Source: Yuukianura sp. NJ FZ-2021
Taxonomy: Eukaryota
Length of the DNA stretch: 64,000 bases
Assembly: GCA_046563655.1 (NCBI GenBank)
Contig: CM102290.1
Location: 7,564,001 to 7,628,000 of the forward strand
Direction: 5' to 3'
Both the position numbers and the translations under genes were made by a program. Every line of letters begins with the position of its first letter. Position 1 is the stretch's first letter. The notes beneath the pieces were generated by a model, which did no database searches, was not told the DNA's origin, and saw only the letters and a program-made list of their open reading frames with translations. This document shows positions 27,201 through 58,400 of this stretch, piece after piece.

Positions 27201-30200
27201 TGTAACTTTTCCCAGACTTTCCCCTGCCTTCCTTCCGTTTCTTTGGAAATGAAGTTATGACTTGTTGTAAGGGGAATGGGGTTGTCGTAGGGAAATTTTC
27301 TTCTAAACTGTCGTCTGGTGGATTTGTAATTGGAAATTTAGGTTTCTTCGCGTTGGCTCGCTGCGGTTTGATGTAAATTGGAGTAGTAGTTGGAGGCAAA
27401 ACGGGAGTAGTTTTGATGTGGGACGTTTTTCTAAGAAAAATTGTAGCAGTATTTTAATATTTGTAAATGTTCTGCAAAATGTGTCACTGTCCTTGTCACA
27501 ACTAAAAGCAAGTATCTACGTCGGGGCTTTGAAACTATAACGTACTGCATTAAGTCAGGAATATTCAATATTTACAACCGAAGCCGCCACCATTACCAGC
27601 AACCAAAACTACCACCATCACCAATGCAAACAAATATTGAATGTTTTTATTGTACGAACTTAGCATCGACATTAGTGAATGTTAGTATTGAATTTGAATG
27701 TTGACTTACTCATAAACCCGGTAAAAATCTCTGGGCGGAGGAACCACGAGTCCTGGAGCAAATGGACCAGGAGGAACAATTGTTGTATTGTCTTCGGGGT
27801 AATCAAAATCGTACGGTGGAGGGAGAAAGATAGAAGGATCGTCTGTTTCGTTGTCTTTTGGATTTAAAACTAACGGCGGGAAGAATGGTGGTGGACCGCC
27901 AGGGGCATTGGGATTAAATCCTGGAGGAGGTCCACTTCCTGGTGGACCAAATGGAAAGAATGGTGGTGGTGGAGGTAGAGTCCCATTTCTGGATCCAGGC
28001 GGAGGTGGATACGGAAAAAACTGTGGAGGCAAAGTTCCGTTACCCGGTTTTCCAGAAGGTGGCTGTCCGTAACCATTACCGTAGCTGTTAGTTGGCGGAG
28101 CTCCGTTTCCATAGAGTCCACCGCCAGGAGGGCCAGTTAGTCCTGGAAATATTTGGGGTGGGGGGAAGGAGTGATTACCGGGACGTAGACCTTGGAATCC
28201 AGCAGGGGGAGGGAGCCCTTGAAATCCTGGAGGCGGTGGACCAAACTGTGGCAATGTTCCGTTGGGAAATAATGGAATAAGTCCTGGAGGTGGTAGACGA
28301 CTTGGGTCAAAAGTTTCATTGAACTCTGCGTATCCAGGCGGAACGGGGAACGGTGGTGGTGGACCAATGAAAATCGGAGGACCAGTTTTGTTGACAAATA
28401 CTGGGAACGGTGGTGGATTGTCAGTGTCCAAGGGAATTCGTAACGGTGGTTTAGATTGGTCTCGCTCGTAGGCATCAATGGGTTTCCACTTGTCACGAGA
28501 CGTGGAGTCAAAGTCACCACCTTTGACGACGAGTAGATGACCGTCAGAGAGCCAGATATCATTTTCTTCCAACTTCCCCAAAGTTTTGTCATTGTCATTG
28601 GCAAAGTCATCACTCTGAGCATAGGAAATAATTCCAGGGGCATTTTGCGATACGTTTCCAAAAAAGTTACTGATCAAAGCATACTTTCCATCTTCTGAAC
28701 CAATCTCCAACGCCAAATTCTTGTCACCCGAACTACTGCCCTTGTTGTTCTCAGGAATTCCTAAATCTTCTTCAGTTGTTTTAGGCGTTGTTGATTTTTT
28801 GGACTTTTGAGGTCGTTTAACTTTTCGACGTCGAATGGATTTTGGTTTTGTGGACTTGTCTGTAGATAGTCGTTGAATGTTTTGTGTCGACGGAGTCTCT
28901 GGCTTTGGAGTAGAAGTGGCAAAAGCAAAGTCTCTTTTGAGTCCTGGCAATATTCTATTGGTTACTCGAGGCGTTGTTGACTCGATGGACATTTCCGAAA
29001 TGTTGTATTCATCTTCATCATCGTCGTAGATCGGAGCATGTGTTTCAGTCTTAGGTTCTTCGTAGGATTTGACAGTGAGTCTTGGAATAAGGGATGTTGG
29101 TGGTGACGAAGTAGTTGGTTCAACTGCTTCGCCATAACGAACACCAAGAACTTTTGTCCTGTAGTTAAGAACAGGTTTCTGTGAACTGAACACTGAGGAT
29201 TCTGGATATGGCTCACTAACACTGTCACTGAATACTCCGGGCAACCAATTTCCGGAGAGGAGGCAGCAGACGGTCAAAATGACGATACGCTTGTCACGAC
29301 AATTCATTTTCCTAATTTTTCAATTCAAATGGACAAACTTTTAACAAAAAAATTTTAACTTGATTGTCCATTTGAAACAGGAGTTTTAATAAGCAAACCT
29401 TGTCCTAAAATTAATTTCCAGGAAATGCAATGAAAAAAGTAAAACAAAAAATTACTTACGATTTGTGCATAGTCGAGTCCGACTGTGAAAATCGCTTGGT
29501 ATATTCCCAAGGCATTGTAGGACGTATCACTTATCGCTCATTCACATGAAGAATTTTTAAAGTATTCATTATAGTTTTCCAGAACTTATTATTTACGTTT
29601 ACTCTGTCTATGTGGACGTGTGCTTGAAGAATTTTTTTTTTCAAATTGTTCACTGGATCGTTCAGATAATCTTAACTGGTATTTTACACTATGAAATTTT
29701 TTAATTGTTTGAGAACAATGGCGTAGCGTTGGCGTCCTGCTTGACCGGCAGGTAGAATTGGAGTGGCAGGTTTTTCCTAAGGAATAGGTTGAAGACTGAC
29801 TAAAAGGCGAGGCGTAGGGTGACAATGCATGTGGCAGGGGGTAGTTTTGTTGGTGGATTTTTCCATGCTTTGGGTTTAAATGAATATTATGGGGGTAAAG
29901 TCAACTTTGAAACCTGTGAATAATCAAATGCCTCTTGTTTTTTTTTAAACCCTAGAGCATTTATCGGAATCTGAACTGAGGAAACGACGGAACAAGGAGT
30001 TGAAGGCCAGAAGAAAAGCAGAAATGGAGCAGAAGGTATATTCACCCCCCTGATTTTTCCACACTTTCTTTGAAATTTTGGTGGCTGGAGGGTTTATTTT
30101 TTTATTCAACGATTTAATAAGAAGCCACTTAAAATTATAACGAGATCGTTCAGGCAGTTTTGAGAGAGCAGACCATTGTTGTTTTTGATGAGAGTGGAGT

Positions 30201-30867
30201 TGGTGGATGTCTCATTGTTTTTGAGTTTTATACGTAGGATTTGTTTTTGATGTTTCAGGAAGTAGCTTTGGCGGAAACGAAGAAGGAGCGTCATGCTAAG
30301 TCAAAGCAGGCAATGGCGGATGATGGAGAGTATCATCCTCCACAAGCGGAAGAACTTAATTCGGAGAGTTTAGCTCGAACAACAGAACCACTAGAGCAAG
30401 CAGTCAAATTTCTGGAACCGCTCCAGTCATTCGCGTTTAACAGAATGGACACACATCTTCTTGCCTATGATATTTATAAACGGAAAGGTGGGTTTTCAGA
30501 TGCTTTTAGCTGCAATTGTTGTTTTGGAATTCATAAAAGTTACCTTATGTTTTGTGTTTTTTAGACAAACCATTGTTGATGTTGAGGAGTCTCAAACGAG
30601 CACTGAAAATTAGCCCAAGAAACCGCACATTATATGAATTTCTAATACATTTTCGACAATATATGCAACAAAGGTGAGGTTTTTTTTTTATTCAAAATGA
30701 ACATTGGGCCTGAACTGAAATTGAATTTTTGTTCATGTTTGTCTTCTTCCAGGTTATCCACTCTTCAGGAACCGCTTCAAGGGTTTATGAAAAATGAAGT
30801 CGAGAAACTTTATGAAGCGGCGAAATTGGAAGATTGGATGCAAGACTTACAACTAACAAACGACTAA
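15230..30867 (+). CDS. NAA15: N-alpha-acetyltransferase 15/16, NatA auxiliary subunit (TPR protein, ~768 aa)
   Basis: Exons 15230-15304, 15597-15681, 15924-16054, 16141-16272, 16359-16496, 16562-16712, 16811-17206, 17571-17893, 17970-18098, 18318-18454, 18584-18660, 29956-30035, 30259-30487, 30565-30673, 30753-30867, all phase-consistent. Hallmark motifs: [81 protein letters not shown]. Confidence 0.95.
24344..29307 (-). CDS. Secreted Pro/Gly- and Gln-rich glycoprotein (~1105 aa), nested antisense in an NAA15 intron; possibly cuticle/apical-matrix associated
   Basis: Three phase-consistent exons 29307-27710, 27430-25910, 24542-24344. N-terminal signal peptide ([20 protein letters not shown]) and no other obvious TM segment. 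Motif-like islands [26 protein letters not shown] and [13 protein letters not shown], repeated NGTLP sequons, poly-Q tracts. Function is inferred only. Confidence 0.85.
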
Positions 30868-31224
30868 CAGAACGGCCCCAGCTTTTGTTTCTTATGTTTC
30901 TCAAAGTACGCTACCAAGAGTATTGATCACTGCAAAACTTCAATTTTCACCAAAATTATATACTAATCCATATTACTAGGGGAAAAACAACCAAAGTAAT
31001 AGAAATAACGAAAATTACCTAAGAAACAGTTGCGGCTCAGGATCGGGATCCAATTCAGAACACTTCTGTACTCCAGAAACTATAGACGAAGTGTATTAGG
31101 CAATGGGGAGGCTTTGGATAAAAAACAAAGGCAACCTTGAATTGAATTATTTAATCTTGTAATTCTGTCAGTGCCTTGGCTAATAAGTGTGTTGAACTTT
31201 GTGTACATGTATTCTACCAATATT

Positions 31225-31625
31225 GTCCGTACAGGGAAGGATTCTGCGCAGGCACTCTTAAGTCTCCAGTGAGTCAGGTTTATCTGGCCATTCAGTCGAC
31301 CAGTAAACTGGCTCCCGCTTCTTGTTGTTCGGATGGCTAATAAGCTTCATTCGAACAAATTCGGGAATGATAACATCACATTTGGAAAACCGGAATTAAG
31401 TATTCTGAGGACTTGGAATTTTCAGGCCGAGGGAAATACGAATACTATTCGGGGTAAATCAGAGAATGCTGAAGTCGAGTTAATCCTAAAAAAAGTTACA
31501 TTTAAGATGTATCACTCGAAATTTTGCCAGTGTGACTTACTCCGTTGTAATGTTACGTTGAAGGTGTACAGATAAACCTGATTCACCCGAGTACGCTTGA
31601 GCTGGTCCTTCCATCATCTTCGGAT
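31225..31625 (+). ncRNA. Predicted large structured RNA element in the NAA15 3' UTR or an independent ncRNA
   Basis: Nested complementary segments, including the 18-bp pair 31269-31286/31569-31586, with several G-U pairs valid only on the + strand. AATAAA at 31656. Confidence 0.55.
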
Positions 31626-32370
31626 CGGTTTTTATCATACTATGGCAAACTTGAAAATAAATCATGCCAGGAACTTATACAAAAGCGTTTCCTTTGAGAA
31701 AACTAAATTATTGTACGTTCTCTTTTAATATTATTGTAAACTTTTTTCCCTCGAAGGTGAACAGAGTGTATTTGATGCTCAATTTGTTGGAATTGTCACT
31801 AAATAACAGGATGTTAAGTAAAACGTTTTAAACTTTATTCGTACAACGTGTTTTTAATTGGTCCACATTTCTTTTCAACGTATGGCATTACAAAACATCA
31901 TTTTAAAAGTAGCTAAATAACCTACTATAACTCAAGAAAGGTACTAAAGGAAGACGTATTTCGTAACTTCTAGAAATACATACACAATTACACAGATTCC
32001 CCCCTATTCAGTTAGTCTAACTTTTTTGAAAAAGTTGGTAGCTAAATGAAATACTTTGGCACTTACCTGTCAAGTTACCGTTTAAAAAAAAGTAATGATA
32101 ATAACAGAGGAAGATTTTAAGTAAAAAATACAAAATATTCACACTGAACATAATAGGATGACATTCACTTAATATTATCTTTTGCACTCGAATTAGGATT
32201 ATTGCTATTGAGTTTGTTATAATAATAATAATTAATTAAGTATTCATAAGGTAAAGTGAAGTCCACAATTGGGTTTTTTAAATTGAATCATTTAAACTAC
32301 TATTCTAGTATTATAAACAGGGACGGTTGGGAAGATTGAAATTTTGAGTCTTGGATTGTTTTTTTTTAAA

Positions 32371-35300
32371 TTATGTTGACATTTCTGAACCTAACGTTTC
32401 AACAGGTTTCCCATTGCCATGTCCATTAGTATTACTTGCCATTTTCTTTTCATCCATTTCCAATCCACCGTTGGTGTATGGAATCGTCATTCCATTTTTC
32501 ATTCCGTTAGATTTTTCCATGAATCCACTGTCCTAAAAATTCAACAAATTTGGTTTAAATCTCTTTAGAAATTTAAGTTCTTATTAGACAATTTCAAACA
32601 ATTTGAACAGTGAGAACATTGAAAGCAGAAGGTCATGCGAGACGAGCGTAAAATATTAGCTAATTTTTGACTTAAATAAAGTAAGCTGATTTTGAAGCGG
32701 GAGCAGTGTAGCTTGCAATGTTGAAGTTGAAGCGATGGGAAAAAAGTGTGAAAAATACCTTGAACCCTTGAAAAATGTTTAGAATAAGAATTGAAGAAGA
32801 GAATTTTTAGTTGAAAGATTGAGTGTTATGTTTGGCAAGTAGTGCTTCCCCCACCGGATGCTTCAAAAGCAAAGATTTTCAAAACAAAAAAAAATTAAAA
32901 ACCAAGTTGTGGCTGCATCAGCAGAATTTTGAGAAACCCCCAGCGATTGTGCAGATGAAACAAAATTTTAAATTGCCCCTGAAGTACTGCCCCTGTTTGT
33001 TTTTAATTCTCCAATAAGTTGGAGAGGACCAAAAAATTACATTATAAAGAACTCACTTTTTCTTCCGGTGAAATTGTAGATCGCTGACTTCGTGCTCTGA
33101 AGTACGACTTGGCTACAATGATTAATCCAAATAGGCACAGGACACAGCCAAAACCAAAACAGGCAACAGTAATTGCCAATTCAGCAATTCCAGGAACAAA
33201 TACAGCTTGGCGAATCAAAGTAGTGATTTTTTCTGGCATTTTCTCGATTCCCTATAAATAATCACGAATTTTTGGAATTAAGGAGAAAAAAAATTGACCT
33301 GTCAAAAAAAAAGTTTGCAGCGTTTTGTGTGACTCCATCAAACAGATGAAAATGAGGAGCATCATTTCACAAAATGGAACAAAACTAAGATCTAAAAAAG
33401 AAACTAAAATTTCCAAATTTTGAAAATTTATATCTCCAGAACGGAAACCGATAGGGAGCTAATCTCTTTGAGAAAAACTTTCAAAAAAAAAACACAAATT
33501 TTAACAAATATTGAAAACTCCAAAATCGAAAATCATGCTTTTCGTCAAATTTTGAAAAAAAGAGCATGAACTATTACAGAAGTCCATGGATTTTTTCGAA
33601 ATTTTTCCAAAATCAGAGGGTACCTTTTTAAAAATTTCTAAAAATACTCCATATTATTGTGAAATCAACTGCGAAGAGTCAACTCTCTATCGCTTTCCGT
33701 TCACGAGATATGAGTTTTTAAAGTTTTTGAGAATTAAAATAAAACTGAAAATTCATAACTCAGGAACGGAACGCGATAGAGAACTAATTTCTTCGTGAGA
33801 AACTTTCAAAAAAATGAAGAATTTTCGAAATTTTGAAAAGTTTAAAAGCACACGTCCAGTTTTGGTCAAATTTTTGAAAAAAAAAAGCTGAATTTCAAAG
33901 CACTTTTGAAAATGGAAAATGAGCTTACATCTTCAAACCAAATGACAGGAACAAGTACGTTGTCCAGTTTAGCTGCTTGTGGAATATCGTGAATCTTCGT
34001 CATTTGGATGTTTATTTGAACTCGACCTTTAGCCTGCAGCGGAATCCCGAGTTTCTGAAAAAGAAAAGTTGAGAAATAAGATTATTTTTTTTAATGCTTT
34101 GTTTACACAAAAACGCGTCATTTTTTCAATAAAATGATGAACTGTGATGTTTTGTTGGTCTTACAGGTTGGATGTCAATGTAGAACTGATGACGAGCGGG
34201 ATCTGGATGTAGTCCGACGACAGCTTCGCGCAGGCTTGGATCACCGTGAAGGAAGTGCGGAAAAGAGATGAATACCGGAGACCCTTTAATTGAAAATAGC
34301 ATACAAAGATATCCACTATTCAAAAAATTGATACTTTGGATTTAATTTACTAAAGAACGTACCAAATTGACACACAGAAATGTTGAATGTTCCACGACGG
34401 GAACATGGTGGACCATCGCCACAGTAGCATTGATTTTCAGGATACGTTTGGACGTCACCAAAAGTAGACTCCACTGGAACAAATCTGAAATTTCACAGTT
34501 TCAAATTTGGTTTAGTCATTACGATAAAAACTAAGCTTTTTTTCAAAGTCGTATTGCTTTGGTATCGACTGGTACCGGTAAACTGGAAGTTCTTGTTGAG
34601 TTGTAGATTCTTTGTACTTAAGTTGTAGAGATCGACACATATCCGGTTGAAATATGTAAATGGTGGAGTTTTCCGTTAGCATTGACGGAAAAGCTGACGC
34701 ATCCGTTCCGTTAATCATGTTGCAGTAATCATCGGATCGAATCGGGCGAACACAAGTTTCACCCTCTTCTTCATCGTCAACTTCTTCTTCGTCATGAGCC
34801 GTTGGTTTAGTACAGTTGTCCTTTGACCTGTCAGTGTCATATGGATTTTTCCATATGTCCAACCGTGTCTTCCCATTCCAAACGTCAATGCGAGCATAAT
34901 CTGACAACTTTTCCTGTCCACTGAATACTGTAAATACTTGTCCAGGCGTGTCATTCTTTCCGTAAAACAATCCAAACTTGTCAAAAGGTACGCGTTGACC
35001 AGCTCGTAAAATAGATTTTCCAAGATGCAGCAGCGGATCATCATAGCCCCACATCATGTTCCTTACGCTCTGTTCCTGGAAGGTCGTGAGTTTCAGAAGG
35101 TCAAGGATTGTCGAAATTGCTTTTTTGGGTACGCCCGATGCATATTTCAAGGAACTGAGGGCACTCTGTCAAAAGCAAAATCAAAGTTAACATAGTAGAT
35201 GTGGTACTGTAAAATTTTAAAAACGGCTTATATCTGATTCATGCAACATTTTGAGACTCAAGTAAAGGCGTTTGTCTCAAGTTATCATTTCTTGAGGATT

Positions 35301-38300
35301 TCGTTTGTTAGGGAGATACGGCACGGCGTCGTGTCTGCTTGACCTTTGAACCTGAATTTCCTATCTTGCAGAATAACTGTAACTTATGGCAGAGCCTTCG
35401 TTTCTTTTGACAGGGAATGACTTAGGGAAGGTTCTGTGTGATCCCTTGGTAATATTTAGTGCAGTGGGGAAATTTTCGTGGGTCCTCATTGTTCTTTGTT
35501 CACTTTGAAGATTGTACTTAAGTCTATTTTTGGGACTTACGAGGAGGGGAATATTGGGCAGGAGGTAGACGTCGTCTTCACTCCCATGGGAGAGAGAACG
35601 TTCAAAGTAGTACAGTTTCTTCTGACGATACGAAAGTGTTCCGTTGGGATGCCAAGTGACATTGACCTTTTCCCACTTTTCACTGAAAACAAAAGTACAC
35701 GATGTGAAATGAGAAATAATTTTTACTAAAATGTTTTTTTAGCTTTAGTTTTACTTTTCATGTAAACGCAAGAACTCTCAGCGGAAACTTACCTATACGT
35801 GTATGGACCGAATTCTTGAAGTACAAGTTTGATTGTGCCATTGCTTTCTAGGAATTCGTTTGCATTTGAGACATTAAAAAAGTAGACGCGTAGAATTGGA
35901 GTAGCTGGAGGTTTACGCCACAGTTCTAGCGTTTCTGTTCCTTCTTGTAATGGAAGTCTCTGAAATTCAGCAAATCCAAGGTTCAAAATTTCGAAAATTC
36001 TACTTTTTCTCGAATTTTGTATCAACTAGTAGCTTCTATTGGTTTTGCTACTATTGACAGTGGTAATATATTGAGTGCAAGAATAGAATAAAGTTTAGTT
36101 CGTTTACTTTTCATTATTTGCCTGCATACCAAAAATAAATTAAAAATGTGCATATTTCTTTTAAATTTCGGCGAAACTATTATCCTTCCAAATTCGAAAC
36201 GTTTTTCCCTGGACTATTGTGAGTATAATGTAATGGGTTAAGTACAAAAAGCCCACTTAAAGTTGTTTTTGTTGCGGTGGATTGATAGAATGTTGCGCAG
36301 GCGAACAAGCCCCTTTCCCTTTCAGTACAAACCATATAGGTACAAGTACAGAGCGTAAAGGGGATTTCAAAATCGAAACATCCAAATCCGGTTTTTCTAA
36401 TGAGTCAAAATTGAAAATTGGCACAAACGAAATGGAAAAGAGTGGGATTGCGTATGAGCATAGGCTAGAACAAGACGACCTTTACCAACTTAGTACATGG
36501 GCCGCTTGATCATTGGCCAAAACGGCCCTTCGCCAGTGGAGCGCAAAGATGCAGTAACAACAATTAAATGGGGGGAACAACATTTTACAGTAGAAAAAAA
36601 GAACAATTCCTAAGTCTGCATGTTTTGACAGGGTCGATGCATCTTGATTTCGTCTGTTGTGTTAGAAAGGGAAGGTGTTTTAGCATGCGTGCCAAATTAG
36701 TTTTCAAAAAAAAGAATTACATTTTCATATAACTTAATTTTTTCTTTGAAAATATAACTTACGGAGGCTATGACAATGTCCACGAGGGATTGGAAGAACA
36801 GGAGAGTCAGGATTCCCACGACGATGAGGACGACGCCTGCCGCAATGGCCAACGCTGAAAAAAAAAGTTCAAAATTTTATTTAGTTTTTGATTTGCTAGT
36901 CACATATTTTTGACATAAGTTAGATTGCTTTGCATTTTGGAAATTTCATGTACTGTCAGCATTTTTTTTCTACGATTTTTAAAATCGATACATTTGTGAA
37001 TTTGGTAAACGCGCTTGAAAGCTTATGTACTTTTATTAAAAAAATGAAAACAGTCATTTTCCATGACCAAACGGAATTGTTATACACTTGAAATTTTGTC
37101 CGTTGGTTGAAATACAACGTATGTATGAGGTGACTTTCTGGAGGGGAGGGAAGGCAGAACGACGTAGGGAACCAAGGCCTTTTGGAGGCATGCTCCCCAT
37201 TGACATGGTCCCTTAAGGGCTTGCACAGGATACTTGCTTGGAAAAGTAACAATGGAGGCCTTACAGGTGGAGAAATGCTTTCTAAGGTTCCACTGGGACG
37301 AACTAGATTTCATGGTCGATGGCGACGGATCAGGAATTGGAAAGTTTCCCTGCCACCAACACCACCAATCTCCAACGTCCAACAATTCATGTATATTACG
37401 GATCATATGAATTTTTGTTGGACGCAGAGACGTTTGCCTTGAAGAAAACACTGACGTATTTCGTGTTACTTTTTTAATAATCCCAGAATTCTTGTAATTT
37501 GACAGAACAAACCGCTATAACCTTGTGACGCAGTTCGAACGCAAAATGACGCTTGTGAGAATTGACATATTTAAAATCTAATTCAAAATCTAACTGGTTA
37601 TTACAGTTATTTTATACCACATTAATCCCTTGTACTACATTCGGCTGAGTCATCCCGTTTTTGGTAAGTAACTGTGACGCAAACTAATGCTAAGTGAACC
37701 ATATGAGGTGACAATTAATCCGGATTTACACAATTTCATTTCACAAATCCTGCTTTTATACAGATCTGTGTAAAAGTAGTCTGTATCTAACACAAGTTCA
37801 AGTTTTTGCATTTTTCTTCAGAATTTCCTTTAACGTCTAAAATAAAAATCTCCAACTTTTATTGAAGATTTCGGTAGTTGATATTATTTTTTTTTACTGA
37901 CGCGTAGACGAGAAGTTTGCTTTGACTTAAGATTTGACTTCGTACGTTGTTTTTGTGGATTACCTTGATACACTCCCTGTACACTGTAAATCTTACAATA
38001 ATTCACTCCATTTTATTCGGTAAATCGTGATATGACATAATGATTTGTTGCACCTACGTAACATGTAAGAATGAATGAATACTAATGGGGTGATTCCCAT
38101 GTTACCTTGCTTCAAAGTTTTTCAATGTCACCAAAGCTGAAGGTGTGAGAAATGATAGTGCTAAACAATGGGCAGAGGTGAATGAGTGTCTAATACTAGT
38201 AATGTACAGGCAGATCTTTTGGAAGCATTAAAGCTGCATTTTCGCAACAACAATAATTAAAAACAAAGCCAATGTGTACCAACCGACCTTCTACCTTTTC

Positions 38301-41300
38301 ATTGTAAGTTTAAACTAAATATTTTAAAATTCTACAACAAAAGACAAAATTTTACAATAAAAGGCAAATTTTTACAAGAAAAAGCAAAATTTCCCCTCGG
38401 ATAGGTGGAAGTCACTATTTTTTGAACCAAACGCTCTTCTCTTAAGCAAACATAGCGCTCTTCTTTAAACGTTAAGCAACATGGTGCAAAAATTGTGTAT
38501 TTGTCAACTCATTTTTAGGCTTAAAAAACTTGGAATCTTAATGGTTTGATGCAAATTGACACCTACTTGCCTAACTTTGATCGACTGAAATAAGTGATCA
38601 ACTGGGGTAATTTTCACACCAAAGTTGTCACAACGCCATTTCAAATTGGAAACTCACACATTCTTCAAGGAAAATCAATCAAGATCTTTTGTACCTAAGG
38701 AAGTGAAATTGTGCAAAGCCCGATATGCACTGAGAACCTGCCTTTCACGAATCATTGAATGACAATTGACAAGAACAGTGCCACTTAATTACACTCAAAA
38801 CCTTCAATCTACTCTAACCAAAAATTTCAAAAATTTTCGGAGCAAAGAACATAAAAGTTTGGGAAGTTTTAAACTCACGGAGATGACACGAAATAGTTTA
38901 GAAAATTTTAACATTTCCAAAAGTGTCATGGCTGAATCTATTTCATATGTGAAATGAAAGGTGTGACAAGATCATAAGGTCATTGTCAGAAATCTTTGAT
39001 AGAAATTATCTACTCTGCAACTTCGTCTGACGAGAGATGAATTGGGAAGATGCAATTGCAATAATATTGTTCCCACTGCGACCCAATTCTCATCTCTCAT
39101 GATCACAAGTTATAAGCAAAACAAAACAGATTCACCGCGGTGATAAATACGAAAATTGCATTTTGGTGAGAATGGGAAATAAAAGTATAAAAAGAGGAAC
39201 CTCGAAATTAAACTATAATTTCTTTGATTCAATTTCAAATCTCTTTGTATTTCTCCTATCCTTCACTTTTGCCTGTCTCTTAATTTTTCCTTTTAAGACT
39301 TAATTGGAATTTTGGAGAGATTAACATGTAAACAAAAACAAAACAATCGTTTAAGGATACGGAATTGTAGGGCTAGAGGAAGGAAGTTTTAGAATTTGAC
39401 GTCTTTCAAGAAATATAATGAAACTAAAATGGGTTGAAATGACCTCTGTCCATGTAAATGTTCTTGAGTACCACAAGAATCCATGGTCAAACGAAATAAG
39501 ACACATTTCAAAAGGCACGAAAATAAGAATGGTACACCACCACCACTACTTACTAACCTACTAACATTACAATAGGAATGAATTTGCAAATTGTTGTGTC
39601 TGTAGGTTAACTGTTGATATCATGTGCCAATTGCTCCTTAAATTGTTAGGTTAGGTTAGGTACCTACTTAAAAACGTTTATGCTTTACCACATTCCAAAT
39701 TACCCAAACAATTACTAATAAATTTTCCAAACGCTTTTCAAAATCTCAGACTTCTGTTTCTTCCAAATCAAATATCGCAAAATATTTGCGATAGTACTTG
39801 AATTGTTTTGGAGAAAATTTGATTCGTGAGTCATGACAAACACAACTGGTGATGCACAACTGTAAAAAATAAATTATATTTATGAAACAATTTTTGAACG
39901 GCGTTTTTCAATTTGAAACTGAAAGCGAAGTTATTTCATCTGGTGTGTAATTTTTTTTTGAATAAACAAAACGTATTATTGGTGTGCTCAAATATTATGC
40001 CGTGTAGTTGCAGAAAATCAATGAATTTGTAAATAGGCGTCAAAATGAACAACAGGCTTAACTTAATTTAACTTACATCACGATCTTAATTCCAAAATTT
40101 TCTTTCCTAAAGCGTCATGTATTCTTTCCTTAAGTTTGTTTCCGGTAAATCCAGATACAAAGTGCACATGAACTTATGTTAAAAAAATCTTTGATAAGGC
40201 AATACTTTACAAAAATTGGGCTGATTCCACTCCTTACTCATTCCGCAATCACGTAATAAACTTGCACGTCAACATCTTACAACTTGGATATGTCAAATGC
40301 ACTGCATAGGCAACATATCATGAACTGAATCTAAAAAGACCGTGAACATAAATACAAAGTTCATAGTCGGTTGAGGCAGTTGTGAAAGATCATTTGGATT
40401 TCAAAAAACTTTCATTTGCACAGGGATTTTTTGATTAAAAAACTCAACAAGTCCTAAAAAATCAGGACGTGATGAAATATCTAACAGTAACAAACACTTT
40501 GGAAGAACAAAAGAAGCATCAATGTAATTTGTGTTTTCTGGTCCCCATTGTGAAATCTCTATTTGTATCCTTGTATGTTGATTTTTTTTGTGCAAAGACA
40601 AATACTGGTTTTATAACTGGAATTCATGCTGTACACTAGTACACTTGAACCAATGTTCTACGGAAGCAATCCATGAGTGGTTAAGTTCACTTATAAAAAG
40701 AAAAAGAATTATGTGAATCTTTCTTTAGTTGTTTTTTAGTTTAGCACAAGTGTACATACTTAGGCTTTGATGATTCCATGCGGATAATACATATTCTTAT
40801 GAATCTGAATTGATGAACTGACGCAGACATTGAAGCACTACAGAAAGAACAGTCCATTTCCCACAAGTGAAGTGTGCTACACTAGTTAAGTACTAATTTA
40901 GATTTTCCTATTACCATTATGTACCATAACTTCAGCGGCTATAATTCTCTTAAATCTCAAATGATGCAATTGAAAGACCTTGAGCCATTGTCCAGCCCAG
41001 AAATTATGGAAATTGAAATGGAGACAATGCTATTGTTGACGTGAACAGTAGACTTCTGGACTCGAGAACAAGAATATGTTTAGTTAATTTCAATTTAGAA
41101 AAAAGGACTCCAGGAATGGTAAAGTGCGTTTTGAGAACTTTTGGCAGTGGACTGGAAAATTGTAATTGGATAGCTTAAGATGTTGACGAGTTGACAATCA
41201 ATCAGCGTCTTTCAATTTTACAAAATAAGCACCGTGTAGTCAACAATTTGCAACTAAAACAATAATGACAAAATATAATAAATCTAAAACTCAAATGGAA

Positions 41301-41506: not shown

Positions 41507-44500
41507 GTGCACTAGAGCCTAGAATCTGTCGATCTCTGAAACTGAAAGCGTGCGAACTTATCTACTCAATTGATTTCGTTCCCGTACTCCTATTCGCTTG
41601 TGTATCTCAATCCAACTGTGAAATTAAGTCCACTTCACCTAGTTGTCAATCGCCTCTTATTTCTATTAAGATAACAATAATTCCAGTTCTACTTTGTCAC
41701 TTTCAAAGCACCACTAAAACCTACCTGTCAAGCCTAAAAAAGTTTCAATAGCTTTCAATAGAGAGGTTGTGGTTGACCCCTCAGTTTCAATTTTTCGAGA
41801 AAAACCTTCGGATTTTTATTTAGAAAAGAACTAATTTAAAAAAAAAATAGGTTCGTTGATGACCTCAGTCATTTTCAGTCAACCCAACTGAAAACTAGGA
41901 TTTTACCTTGGGCTAAAAGTCATTAAGGTGTCATTAGACGCTATTTTCTTTTGTGCTACGCAGTGTAAACACAATTGCTCCTCTGGATTGGTTCAAAACT
42001 GCATAGCTTTTACGCAAGCTCGTCCAACTTACTATGACTTCCCGAAAAGACATCTCCATGGATGCGAATCGGATTTCATAACATCTTTGACATTATGCTC
42101 AATAGTCAGATTTGCGTAGAAGATTTAAGGCCGAGTAGACAATGCATTTTTGTTGGCAATTGTTTTCCTAAATTCCTAAATTTACAAACGCTACTAACTC
42201 TGCTACAACTTTGCAAAAACTGTCAAAAACAAAATGCACGTGGAACGTAACATTTTTGAGCGACATTAACTGTTTACTGTTGACTACAGTGATGTATACG
42301 GAAAAAAAATTAGTTAATAGTCCATGACTTTATCTGCTCCGCTTATTCAAATAATTAACTCATGCGCCCTGTCTTTCCTTCAAAAAACGCAAACGCACAA
42401 GCAGAAAATGTAACAGAAAGAAAAATTCAGAACTTACTGGTCAGAATTGGGCGTTTGAGCATTTTGAGCAAATTTGTTTAGGAGCGTTTCGGCATACGAA
42501 GATCCAAAAATCCTGTTTTTGAATTGAATCCTCGTTGGTTCTCTTGCACGTTCTGTCCTTCCACAACTCTGTTAAAAATCAACCAGGAACAATAATGGCT
42601 ACTTAATTTTTTTTTTCGAAACGAGATGAATATTTAGTTGCCCCTAGCAACTTCCTGGCTGCATTATTGTTCTGTGTCGGTCACTAGTACTACTAAGTCA
42701 ATAGGGTGATGTGGTAGAAATGACTGACTTGAATTTTGGGAGAGCGTCGTCGTGTCTTGTAAAAGTTATAAAATTGATGATGATGGTAGTGGTAGTACAT
42801 AGGGAGGGCGAGGGAAGAGGGTTAGGATTTAAGAATAAGGATTTTTGGCTGACTTACACGAACAGAACGATGATGGTGCTGTATAGAAACCGATGAAGCT
42901 TCTGCTTTAAGGGTGGAAGTGCTAAGAATAAAAGTGTTGTTGGGTCCACCTTGGTATAACGTTTTTGGGAAGCTTAGGAAGAAGCAGAAGGGGATCAAAG
43001 ATGGGTACTTAAGGCACTTCTTCGGATTTCCTTCCAAGTCCAAGGGGTTCGTCGTAGTCCAAAAAAGGGGGCGGTGTGAACGGCCACGGTTTAGCAACTT
43101 TAAGGGCTACCAAAAGTTGATTGACGGACCCAGGGCCAAGGGCTAGCACAAGAAAATGCTTAACTTCTTCAAGTCAAAATCCTGTACTTTTACACAACTT
43201 TTGCTTTTGAAACACGCCTTTGTACTTCGAACTACTTTTAAACAAAAAAAAACAATTTTGAAAAGTTACAGAGTCATCGAGGAGATCTCGGACTCAGCTA
43301 CACAAAACAAAACTTTTTAAAGAAAATGTGTCATTGGACCGAAACAATCAAATTTTCTTTTCAAAACTCGTGTTAAAAATTTGGTCTACAGATCCAATCA
43401 ACACTTGAAAGTTTTAATCTGTTGTTGTGCGTTGATGAATCTCTTTTGGATTAAAAGCTAGCAGGAAGATTTTATAGAGCTGGTTAGGAAGCACATGTAA
43501 CTTTGGAACTGGGTTGTCACTAACACAAAAAAAATTTAACTAAAACTAATATTTAACAGAGATAAAAATCGAAGCGTCTCTTTTCAGATCAAAGTGCAGA
43601 GGGCAGTTTGGGGAAAAAGATTACAAAGTATATTGGGCCAACTGAACTGAATGTGGTCCAATGTTGTCCGTGGTCCTTTGTGAATTGAAATCACTGTTGA
43701 AACTAATACACTGCTCAGTGTTCACTCAGTCATGACTCCTTTGACTAACTAACCACAACTGAATTGACTCCAATATTACAAACGTAAGGGAGAAATCAGA
43801 AACTTCTTGGCGGCATTAAGTTAGCCGCATACTACTGCAAAAGCGCCTAAATCTTGTGAGCACTTCCACTCTGATGCTCTCCCAATTCACAAAGGCCCAA
43901 AAACAAAATTCGCAAGTGGCTTTATCCACAAATGATTTACACACGAGGGTTGTTCACATCCTAAGTGCGCGCAACACATACAAAAGATAGCATCCCCAAA
44001 TACTCACACTGTGTGACATGAAGTATTTTAAGAGTTGGCCACTTACTGAAAGAATGGACACCAATTGTACTTTGGAAGCCATCAAATGTACAACAGAAAC
44101 AACATGGCGACTAGTCCAGTGTCGTCTAGCGTGGTACAAACGGACATTATGACAAGAGACCATCATGGGCCCTTGCTTTTGTTTTGGAGACCTTGCTACA
44201 TATCAACTGCAATCCAATGACCTCGGCCTCGATTCCCCATCACTTATTCACTTATGGTAAAAACCAAATATGACATAGAACAAATAAAAGTTCATTCACA
44301 AAGTGTTCAACTTAAGGACCAGCAGTGAACTGCACTTGCCCTTTACCTCTTGACATTATAGTCGATAGAAAATTTAACCAATGTTTGTAACAATTACAAA
44401 GTCCAACAGTGACGCTTGCGTCGAAACTCTTGCTCAGCAGTTTTGGAGAACTGGCTTGCAGCAATGAAATTAAAAAAATATCGAGTCATTTCATTGGAAT

Positions 44501-55400: not shown

Positions 55401-58400
55401 TTTAATGTTTTGAATTTATAAGGCATAAGTTTAAATAATATTTTGAATGCTTTGATGTTATAAGGTCAACTGGCTGCAAAAGCTTATTGCCAAATGAGCA
55501 AGACAATAGGAAGTTTTTAGCTTAACAATTTTAGTTTTCTTCTTGTAGCTAAATTAATTCAAATTAAGCTACTATTGGATTTAAGTTATGATTTATAGTT
55601 TTTCAGTTAATTAATTGGAACGTTAGGATTGGGAATGAAGCCATTATGTAACAACTGCGTAGATTGAAGCATTTGTTGGCGCCAAATTCAAACTGTTAAG
55701 TATGGCCTCCATGATGAATTTCTGGAGGGATCCCTTAAGGTTGACCAGTATCCTCTGAAGTATAAATAACTGCGGGATAAACTGCTCGTACTGCCTGTCA
55801 ATTGTTGTAACAAAGTGTTGACACTAATAACAGTTTGGAAAACAACAGCAAAAGGGAGTTGGCAGTTGGCACACCAGCAACTATACAGCTACCACAAGCT
55901 TCAACCCATTTTTCAAATTCAGTTTTTCGAAAAACGTGGCTTTAGTTGTTCAAAGTTGTGCAGCATCTTTGACCTAGAAAGTAGGATGCTGGATGCTTGG
56001 GGAATTTATAAGAGAGTGTAAGGACCGCCTCTTGTGACATGCCACAGAGGATGACATGTCACGTCAAGCGTCAAGGAAGAGGTCCAGCCCAGATTAGAAT
56101 CACACGCGGTAAGGCTCAAAACAAGGTGTGAGCCATTGGCCATAAACGCAAGGGCACTCACCATCATCTTCGTAGGAGACCTCAAGGGCCCCCATCGTTG
56201 AAGCCACTCAATGATTTTTCTCCAAGTCTTTTCAACGAAAACAAAACTCAAATCAAAATTTTACTTTTTTAGAACTCCGTTGAAAAAAATGGATCCTGTT
56301 TCAGATTATGAATTCCAAAGCATTAGGTCCATGATGTTTGAGAATTCAATGGCGTTATTTGCTTTGAGGGTACAAAATGCCTGGATTTTGAAACACTTTA
56401 ATTAAAATTGAAGGGAGAGAGGACTTAATTAGGCGAGAAGTGAAGGTCAATATAATTTTTGAATCCCTTGGAGTGAGACGAGGAGACTTTTTGGATTTCA
56501 GAATTTGAAGCCCTTCCCAAGTCCCTTCGTTGTCCAAATGGAGACTTGAGAAATACTGCCAGAATATCAACGTTTGTACCGAAGGCTATTTATTTTGATG
56601 TGGGTGGACAGATGAGGTCGCCACCACTTTAAATGGTGTACAGTACCCACTAACAACCACGTACACATACAACCTAAACTTTTCTAATTCTTTGCTCATT
56701 TGATTTGAAACTGGAACACACAAGAATTTGAACCCAGTCTAATCGTTTTGTATTTTGGCTTAATTTTATTTATTTTAATTTACAAAGATTAGCCCAGATT
56801 TAAACCAAGATCAAAATTTCTGGAAGGTTCTACAATGCAAAAGCTTGTTAAGTGTTTTAAACGCTCTGGGTTTGCTTGGGATTTTATTTGCGCTTTAGTT
56901 CGCAAAAGTTTCAGTACTTTACATTATTTTCATCTTTTTAACTAAAATGCTTTGGACGTGCCAATTAGGGTAAAGTCTTTTTATGGAAGAGGACATGATG
57001 CACCTCCGGGGTAATGGACAAGCAAATTGGCGACGTCTGTTAATAAAATCTGCAAAATCTTTTAGTTTCATCTTCCTTTACGGCAGGGATTTCCTGCTAC
57101 ACAAGATACTGAAGAGCATTTAAGATGCACATCTTCCGAGTCCCTCAAGATAAAAGGTTTTGGAATTGTTCAAAAGTTCAGAATTTGTAACTTTGTGACA
57201 AGCCGCTTTTGTTTCCGAAGAACTTTTGAGATTTTTTTTTGTCGTACTAGTGGTTGTAAATAATTCCATGATGCGTGTGGGTGTAAAGGTTGCTGAGACA
57301 AATCCATTTTGAATTCATTCCAAGATCACTTCAACTAAACTTGTGTAGTCTAAAAGAAACAGTTTATGTTAACCAATTTATCCAAAGTGTCACATTGGAT
57401 TTATTTTTCCAGGCACATTACAATCAACATTTAGAAATGATCATTTAGAAACTTTTGAAAACGAGAAACTGTTTACAATTTTTTCAAACAAATGCTGGAT
57501 TTCTTTTATTAGAAAAATGAAAGTTATCTGTTCGTTAGAAACTGCCAAAAAGATTTTGACAAATGGAAGGCGTTTTGGGGGCATTTTGTCTTGTTTTTTT
57601 TTAGAGTTTGTCACATGTAGCATCTGCTTGATAATAGTTTTGTGCTTGTTCAAACAGTAATTTTTTTTGTAACTTTTCTTTTCAACTGAAGCCAAAAAGT
57701 TAATAAATGATTTTCCGAAAGTCTCATTAGGGACCCAAACACTTTTGAACAAAAAAGTAAAAGGCGAAGCGTCCCAAGGGAAACTCAGCTTTTTTGGACA
57801 AAAATGAATCCCTGTCTGACTGTTTTTGTGAAACTTTTTTTGTAATTTGTCTTAAGAGCGTGTCCGAACCTTCGAAGCTTAAATCAGTGTCGCTTGATCC
57901 TGCTGCATCTGGACAGATCAATCAACTGTCACTGTTTGCACTTCACGCTCTTCTTGGCTTAAGTGTCTTTGGAGTGGGCCCTTGACAGAAGGACTTTTAA
58001 TTTGGGAAAATTGGATTTGGAAATTGGGATTTATTTTGGAAGTGGATCTAATCCAACAAAAGTTAAATTCCATTCACCAACACAAGCACAGGCGACACTT
58101 CTGCGCATTTTGAATATTTTTTTCTCCAATTCCAAAATGGGGAATGAAACGGCGATTAAATTTATGGATGGGACCTGAAGAGGTTGAAAAGTTTCACTAA
58201 GGGTTAAGGGCCCACTCCAAAATTATAGCCCTTCTAAGGGCTCATGTTTAAAAAAATCCAACGGAAAAATTTGGGATTTTTTAATAAGCTTGTTTCATAA
58301 GTTGAAACTTTCTTATGGTTTAAATTAAATTATCGCAAATTTCTGATCTACCTCTTCAAAGTTTTACTTTCATTAATATCTTAAATTGTGCTGTTTTAAT

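Follow-up and report, generated by a model that had tools for sequence, protein, structure and literature searches.

Background

An intramolecular duplex that arises from an inverted repeat within the transcript is common to ADAR substrates and to hairpin-RNA (endo-siRNA) loci in UTRs; in hairpin-RNA loci the duplexes extend over hundreds of bp. Another class is formed by the duplexes that STAU1 binds in 3′ UTRs. According to excerpts of PMC10164587, the span of these duplexes has its main peak at 252 nt, the median number of paired nucleotides is 20, and the stems are symmetric with few bulges and A-U-rich when they are long range. Excerpts of PMC6238398 describe the Staufen-binding site of ARF1 as a 19-bp stem with two wobble pairs. 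With respect to origin, template switching has been proposed to create perfect RNA stems in a single event; in the events covered by the excerpts of PMC8794818 source and target lie at most 8 bp apart, and longer distances are only speculated on.

Here we describe an element related in build to these systems. The window, by which we mean the whole 64-kb stretch of Yuukianura sp. NJ FZ-2021 DNA that was analyzed, contains after its NAA15 gene a solitary imperfect long-range inverted repeat with interrupted helices, of which 31225 and 31625 form the outermost pair. The Staufen1 duplexes, as far as the excerpts describe them, are similar in several respects. The longest helix of the element has 18 bp with one G-U pair, compared with 19 bp and two wobbles in ARF1; its arms are 282 nt apart, compared with the main peak of 252 nt; A-U pairs have a comparable share, 10 of the 18 core pairs; and the element, too, is presumably located in a 3′ UTR. 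An uninterrupted helix in the Staufen-type range (about 12-19 bp or more), few bulges and arms more than 100 nt apart are all found in it. However, the Staufen1 duplexes were defined by cross-linking of human STAU1, and the element resembles them in dimensions only.

Analogously to ADAR substrates and hairpin-RNA loci, the element is an inverted repeat that could form an intramolecular duplex, but its longest helix has 18 bp and its whole stem consists of about 54 interrupted pairs. Foldback elements and MITEs, like it, fold on both strands and have an inverted repeat around a non-coding spacer of a few hundred nt; unlike them, the element is single copy, shows no target-site duplication, and has its best-kept repeat in an internal position. 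Finally, it resembles template-switch stems in that a near-perfect inverted block lies inside poorly pairing flanks, and in that the window holds an excess of such repeats. In contrast to the events in the excerpts of PMC8794818, with at most 8 bp between source and target, the arms of the element are 282 nt apart, which is evidence against a template-switch origin.

Results and discussion

Architecture of the stem

In the MFE fold of the + strand, the left arm of the long-range stem (31225-31298) pairs through interrupted helices with the right arm (31556-31625). They enclose a loop of about 257-260 nt (31299-31555), which contains a side hairpin, what the preliminary description had called a second arm, and an A-run at 31487/31488. 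The core of the stem is a helix of 18 uninterrupted pairs between 31269-31286 and, within the right arm, 31569-31586: 7 G-C, 10 A-U and one G-U (31273-31582), with 282 nt separating the two sides. Its 5′ side begins with a donor-like GTGAGT hexamer. A T5 run, read from the sequence at 31629-31633, lies just 3′ of the stem. All of the helices that had been named in the preliminary description were found in place, off by 1-2 nt at most.

The 54 long-range pairs of the + strand fold (27 G-C, 20 A-U and 7 G-U) by themselves account for -61.1 kcal/mol, and the 46 of the - strand fold, one of them G-U, for -48.5 kcal/mol. Pair probabilities on the + strand, calculated in contexts of 409, 833 and 1601 nt, are 0.86-1.0 at 8 of 9 test pairs; the core reaches 1.0, and the innermost test pair, 31298-31556, has a probability of 0.51.

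An 11-nt direct repeat, TGGCTAATAAG, is present at 31177-31187 and 31334-31344, 157 nt apart. One copy lies 5′ of the stem and the other within the loop of the side hairpin, where a single nucleotide polymorphism (31341) falls inside it. This direct repeat may well be due to chance.

Folding strength of the whole and of its parts

As folded by RNAfold, the 409-nt element has an energy of -133.2 kcal/mol on the + strand, compared with -104.2 ± 5.6 for dinucleotide shuffles (z -5.16, a value reached by none of 100), and of -118.1 kcal/mol on the - strand, compared with -93.1 ± 6.1 (z -4.11, again 0 of 100). A second, independent set of shuffles gave z values of -5.72 (+) and -3.89 (-). Folding in excess of shuffled controls, as the preliminary description had expected, is thus observed, but on both strands and not on one.

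The excess is distributed unevenly. When the parts were tested as arm-against-arm duplexes, with 500 shuffles per test, the core duplex (31269-31286 with 31569-31586) had z values of -8.12 (+) and -6.86 (-), and on neither strand was any of the 500 shuffles as good. The outer extension (31225-31268 with 31587-31633) follows with -3.47 on the + strand (2/500) and -2.28 on the - strand (16/500). The inner extension (31287-31320 with 31520-31568) is no better than shuffled sequence, at -1.14 (+, 71/500) and -0.74 (-, 105/500), and the interior 31313-31525, comprising the side hairpin and the second arm, is likewise at chance level (-1.32 and -1.23). Since the excess stability is confined to the core and its outward extension, the signal is one long-range stem, not a multibranched domain. 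Of the multibranched structure of about 400 nt first described, the long stem stands, whereas the interior and the inner extension, with z about -1, do not.

At the DNA level, local alignment of the whole arms gives a score of 45, compared with 17.5 ± 3.5 in 500 shuffles, and the core supplies 32 of it. Beyond the core the arms can barely be aligned, so that an old long duplication is not demonstrated.

Strand bias

The folding energies of the two strands differ by 15 kcal/mol. About 10 kcal/mol of this gap is reproduced by the shuffles, and most of it is therefore due to the + strand being richer in G+U. The residual asymmetry concerns the G-U pairs, which make up 7 of the 54 long-range pairs on the + strand and 1 of the 46 on the - strand. 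Seven out of eight corresponds to a one-sided binomial P of about 0.035 prior to any correction for the choice of the + fold by eye, which biases the G-U count. As both strands fold significantly, the element is in the main an inverted repeat at the DNA level, with a modest + bias. The structure had been described as strand-specific; this holds weakly, in the excess of G-U pairs and the better outer extension on the + strand, whereas both strands are strong outliers.

The outer extension and the G-U count both leave room for selection on the + strand RNA. The corresponding alternative is that the NAA15 3′ UTR contains a cis-regulatory domain kept by selection, which would serve as a platform for dsRNA-binding proteins or as a clamp that sets mRNA stability, localization or poly(A)-site use; we regard this as possible, though rather unlikely. 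Several observations are in its favor: z values of the whole fold between -5.2 and -5.7 on the + strand against -3.9 to -4.1 on the - strand, the outer extension (2/500 against 16/500), the seven G-U pairs against one, and dimensions that agree with those of the STAU1 long-range duplexes. In addition, the outermost helices are retained in the 1601-nt context on the + strand only and are lost on the - strand. Opposed to this are the mostly compositional nature of the strand energy gap and the choice of the + fold by eye, with its effect on the G-U count. The same figures for the outer extension and the G-U pairs are also the evidence against the mutational origin that we prefer and that is taken up in the Conclusions.

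Genomic setting

NAA15-like exons are found on the + strand from about 15254 onward. The translation of 30238-30564 matches the Pfam family NatA_aux_su (E 1e-15), and the NAA15 orthologues that were found, with at most 50% identity over a query of 130 aa, are mapped by tblastn up to 30674. Introns were delimited by eye from the sequence at 30488-30564 and 30676-30752, as was the probable stop codon, a TAA at 30865-30867 on the + strand in frame with the last exon (30753-30864). A profile made from the last 190 residues of 7 orthologues matches 30537-30674 (E 9.1e-8), and from 30675 to 40000 it gives nothing significant, the next best match having an E of 1.3. C-terminal NAA15 exons hidden within or beyond the element were accordingly rejected, as the C-terminal profile has no significant match down to 40000. 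Judged by these profiles, the NAA15 protein encoded here seems either to be without the last ~100 residues conserved in the orthologues or to have diverged past recognition in them; that is, its C-terminus could be truncated or strongly diverged.

Some further features of this region may be mentioned. Between 30871 and 31215, a few frames are to the eye faintly reminiscent of the C-termini of the orthologues, none of them significantly. Two indels after the stop, at 30893 and 30979, have lengths that are not multiples of three; they come from one run with a depth of 4.7 and could be errors. On the opposite strand, within the large NAA15 intron between the exons at ~18668 and ~29955-30259, there is a stop-free frame of 537 codons (27706-29319, - strand), which is Pro/Gly-rich and without a Pfam match.

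The element begins 358 nt past the probable NAA15 stop. The first AATAAA after this stop, in a motif scan of 30861-33100, is a candidate poly(A) signal at 31656-31661 on the + strand, and 31 nt lie between it and the last pair of the stem. The placement of the structure in the preliminary description, downstream of the NAA15 stop and ahead of a T5 run and then an AATAAA, is therefore confirmed in that the element comes after the last recognizable coding exon with AATAAA 31 nt on. It is plausible from this arrangement that the element occupies the distal part of an NAA15 3′ UTR that would end at AATAAA 31656. The short distance from the end of the stem to this signal also speaks for a selected 3′ UTR domain.

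A gene of the CD36 family is located on the - strand, convergent on NAA15 (PF01130, E 1.6e-42, 34512-35168), with an apparent last exon that extends to ~33042. Its presence raises the question of whether the stem is instead formed by a - strand transcript, either a long 3′ UTR of this gene or an antisense RNA. Most of the stem, the core included, does form on the - strand as well. However, motifs resembling poly(A) signals on that strand, at 33002, 31853, 31834 and 31724, would all be reached before the element, the G-U pairs favor the + strand, and the outermost helices disappear from the - strand in the 1.6-kb context. A - strand origin of the structure is, in our opinion, very unlikely.

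RNA genes and coding capacity

Rfam covariance models gave no match at E up to 1 on either strand of 30500-32500, and none at the gathering score in the whole 64-kb window. This is in keeping with the remark in the preliminary description that hallmarks of SRP, RNase P/MRP, 7SK and telomerase are not recognizable. No tRNA-like gene was found in the window by ARAGORN, and a tRNA-derived SINE was rejected on this basis. Animal pri-miRNAs have a stem of ~33-35 bp with a small terminal loop, and hairpin RNAs a very long near-perfect duplex. With a loop of ~257 nt, 18 bp as its longest uninterrupted helix and no match to an Rfam miRNA family, the element was rejected as a locus of either type.

RNA polymerase III is expected to stop at an internal run of four or more T. 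Two T4 runs, at 31419-31422 and 31522-31525, precede the T5 run, and a Pol III transcript ending at T5 was rejected for this reason. The T5 run after the stem had nonetheless suggested a stand-alone structured ncRNA, which is disfavored by these internal T4 runs together with the missing Rfam match and, in the window, the absence of a tRNA-like gene. A related idea is that the element is a spliceosomal intron with paired ends, given that GTGAGT (31269-31274) opens the 5′ side of the core and CAG (31569-31571) its 3′ side. However, the putative acceptor is without the pyrimidine tract that is present at the two neighboring introns, and splicing would presumably be impeded with the donor inside an 18-bp helix. 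If GTGAGT were used as a donor, the helix would bury it. An RNA gene ending at T5 or an intron of this kind is hardly to be expected here.

A stop-free frame spans 31273-31575, most of it within the loop 31299-31555. It has no Pfam match at E up to 0.01, and its sole match at E up to 1 has an E of 0.082 and 13.5 bits, compared with a cut-off of 23.3. As frame-breaking indels in the A-run occur among the sequencing runs and there is no family match, this frame was rejected as a coding exon.

Copy number

BLAST of 31150-31700 against the 64-kb window returns only the query itself and its own arms, so that the window contains the element once. Five DNA runs contain the stretch, and four of them were examined here. 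In each of the four, a single contig crosses the element, and its depth accounts for the entire contig depth summed over the element; one contig of 21.7 kb covers the whole 2.7 kb examined around the element, and the contigs of the four runs include no additional one over it at 85% likeness or more. Many dispersed copies, named in the preliminary description as the mark of a foldback transposon, are thus not seen: the element is single copy in the window and in the contigs of the four DNA runs.

These data bear on the possibility that a decayed foldback transposon or MITE was inserted downstream of NAA15. The inverted repeat with its spacer of ~280 nt and no intact coding frame, the folding of both strands, and the presence of other inverted-repeat loci in the window, one of them repeat-rich (33400-33800), are what would be expected of such a remnant. 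However, the window has no further copy, none of the four runs has another contig over the element with a likeness of 85% or more, the best-kept repeat lies not at the ends but 34-44 nt inward of the outermost pairs, and no flanking direct repeat was seen by eye at 31225/31625 or at 31235/31612. We consider a transposon improbable.

The 18-base pattern of both core arms was found at 79 metagenome loci. BLAST of 29900-33000 aligned no more than 25 nt among the best 40 matches listed, and alignments confined to at most 25 nt around the pattern indicate chance matches. Three of these loci, L003, L022 and L062, which are on unrelated contigs, have the pattern twice on one strand, at a distance of 234 or 396 nt; the pattern there is probably a bacterial coding motif that is repeated and has no relation to the window.

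Population variants

Nine SNPs are present in the element in the four DNA runs (31246, 31287, 31311, 31322, 31341, 31414, 31439, 31474 and 31485), and the A-run at 31487/31488 varies in length among the runs, with indels of +1, +3 and -1. Nine SNPs in 409 nt is not a lower density than in the flanks, which have 13 in ~1225 nt and 8 in ~967 nt; a selected domain gains no support from this comparison. Two details are more favorable to it. First, none of the SNPs listed for the four runs falls in the core or the right arm. Second, the arm SNP at 31287 (G>A) converts a G-U pair to A-U.

In contrast, two of the three SNPs in the region of the left arm are disruptive. A long-range G-C pair is lost through the change at 31246 (G>C), at a cost of +4.2 kcal/mol, and a local hairpin pair of the MFE fold through that at 31311 (G>T), at a cost of +3.1 kcal/mol; no compensating partner was seen for either. 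Taken together, the nine SNPs have a mean ΔΔG of +0.76 kcal/mol, compared with +0.75 for computed substitutions (P 0.52), the latter representing 963 of the 1227 possible substitutions, from positions 31225-31545 only, so that those in the right arm are left out. The agreement with random substitutions means that the stem is not spared by population variants, and argues against a selected domain. The earlier suggestion that the G-U pairs indicate selection on the RNA is likewise not supported: the nine SNPs disrupt the fold to the same degree as random substitutions do, and there is no compensatory change among them.

Inverted repeats in the window

The folding of the element was ranked among 636 windows of 409 nt, taken in 100-nt steps, after regression of the MFE on base composition. 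The element is 4th of 636 on the + strand (z -4.02) and 4th of 636 on the - strand (z -3.38), and on each strand all three better-ranked windows belong to a single repeat-rich locus, 33325-33625. Inverted repeats with at least 17 of 18 matching positions within 600 nt occur three times in the 64-kb window, at 31269, 33684 and 57968. Shuffled windows contain 0.165 of them on average; 28 of 200 hold at least one and none of the 200 reaches three. The core by itself is thus not rare at the scale of the window, whereas the core together with its outer extension is. Three repeats against an expected 0.17 suggest that repeats of this type are produced in this genome by a general mutational process.

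Of the same build is the repeat at 57968-58221. It is a 19-nt inverted repeat (95% complementary) that forms a 19-bp stem around a loop of 216 nt, with a z of -2.93 on the + strand; it lies in DNA in which no coding frame was recognized by eye and has no sequence similarity to the element downstream of NAA15. The occurrence of similar repeats elsewhere in the window is a further point against a selected domain.

The same counts are relevant to the simplest alternative, namely a chance helix that was found by scanning the whole window by eye, the rest being ordinary folding. The occurrence of such repeats in 28 of 200 shuffled windows agrees with it, as does the chance level of the interior and the inner extension. 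However, an outer extension beside the core is itself unlikely by chance (2/500 on the + strand), three repeats are found in the window against none of 200 shuffles with that number, and the element has rank 4 of 636 on both strands. A chance helix therefore appears highly doubtful.

Two other loci are worth recording. On both strands, no part of the window folds more strongly than 33325-33925 (z -4.3 to -5.2), which includes the repeat 33684-33782 and contains a 69-nt direct pair (325 nt apart, 83% identity) as well as inverted repeats with arms of 44 nt and 35 nt. Situated amid the - strand exons of the CD36-family gene, it is probably intronic, and it looks like a repeat or transposon remnant. 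Another inverted repeat, at 43660-43910, has arms of 28 nt that are 82% complementary and 195 nt apart.

Conclusions

The best explanation, to which we give about an even chance, is that mutation gave rise to a solitary long-range inverted repeat, most likely located in the distal NAA15 3′ UTR. The evidence for it consists of the robust stem, its outlier status on both strands, the excess of repeats in the window, the single copy and the position. Such a repeat would have arisen by local inverted duplication or by template-switch copying, and would be neither a transposon nor a dedicated RNA gene. In the NAA15 mRNA, pairing of its arms would create a double-stranded clamp immediately ahead of the poly(A) signal, with ~260-400 nt looped out. 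The clamp could compact the UTR, as other long-range 3′ UTR duplexes do, and could offer an A-form helix to proteins with dsRNA-binding domains, of the Staufen or ADAR type.

That this clamp at the end of the NAA15 3′ UTR has been selected and recruits a Staufen- or ADAR-type dsRNA-binding protein is, in our estimate, unlikely. If it were true, the clamp would link the mRNA encoding the NatA auxiliary subunit, in its level or its location, to a dsRNA-binding pathway. Among the titles and abstract openings returned by a full-text literature search, no such control element is mentioned for NAA15. Should the stem be both transcribed and conserved, it would represent a compact, non-mammalian example of a long-range 3′ UTR duplex, carried by the mRNA of a housekeeping factor of N-terminal acetylation.

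Nothing yet shows the stem to be more than an ordinary by-product of mutation. In a more general sense, the locus illustrates how an eye-catching fold can boil down to a single inverted repeat on a background of ordinary folding; such repeats also seem to arise in this genome at a rate above chance.
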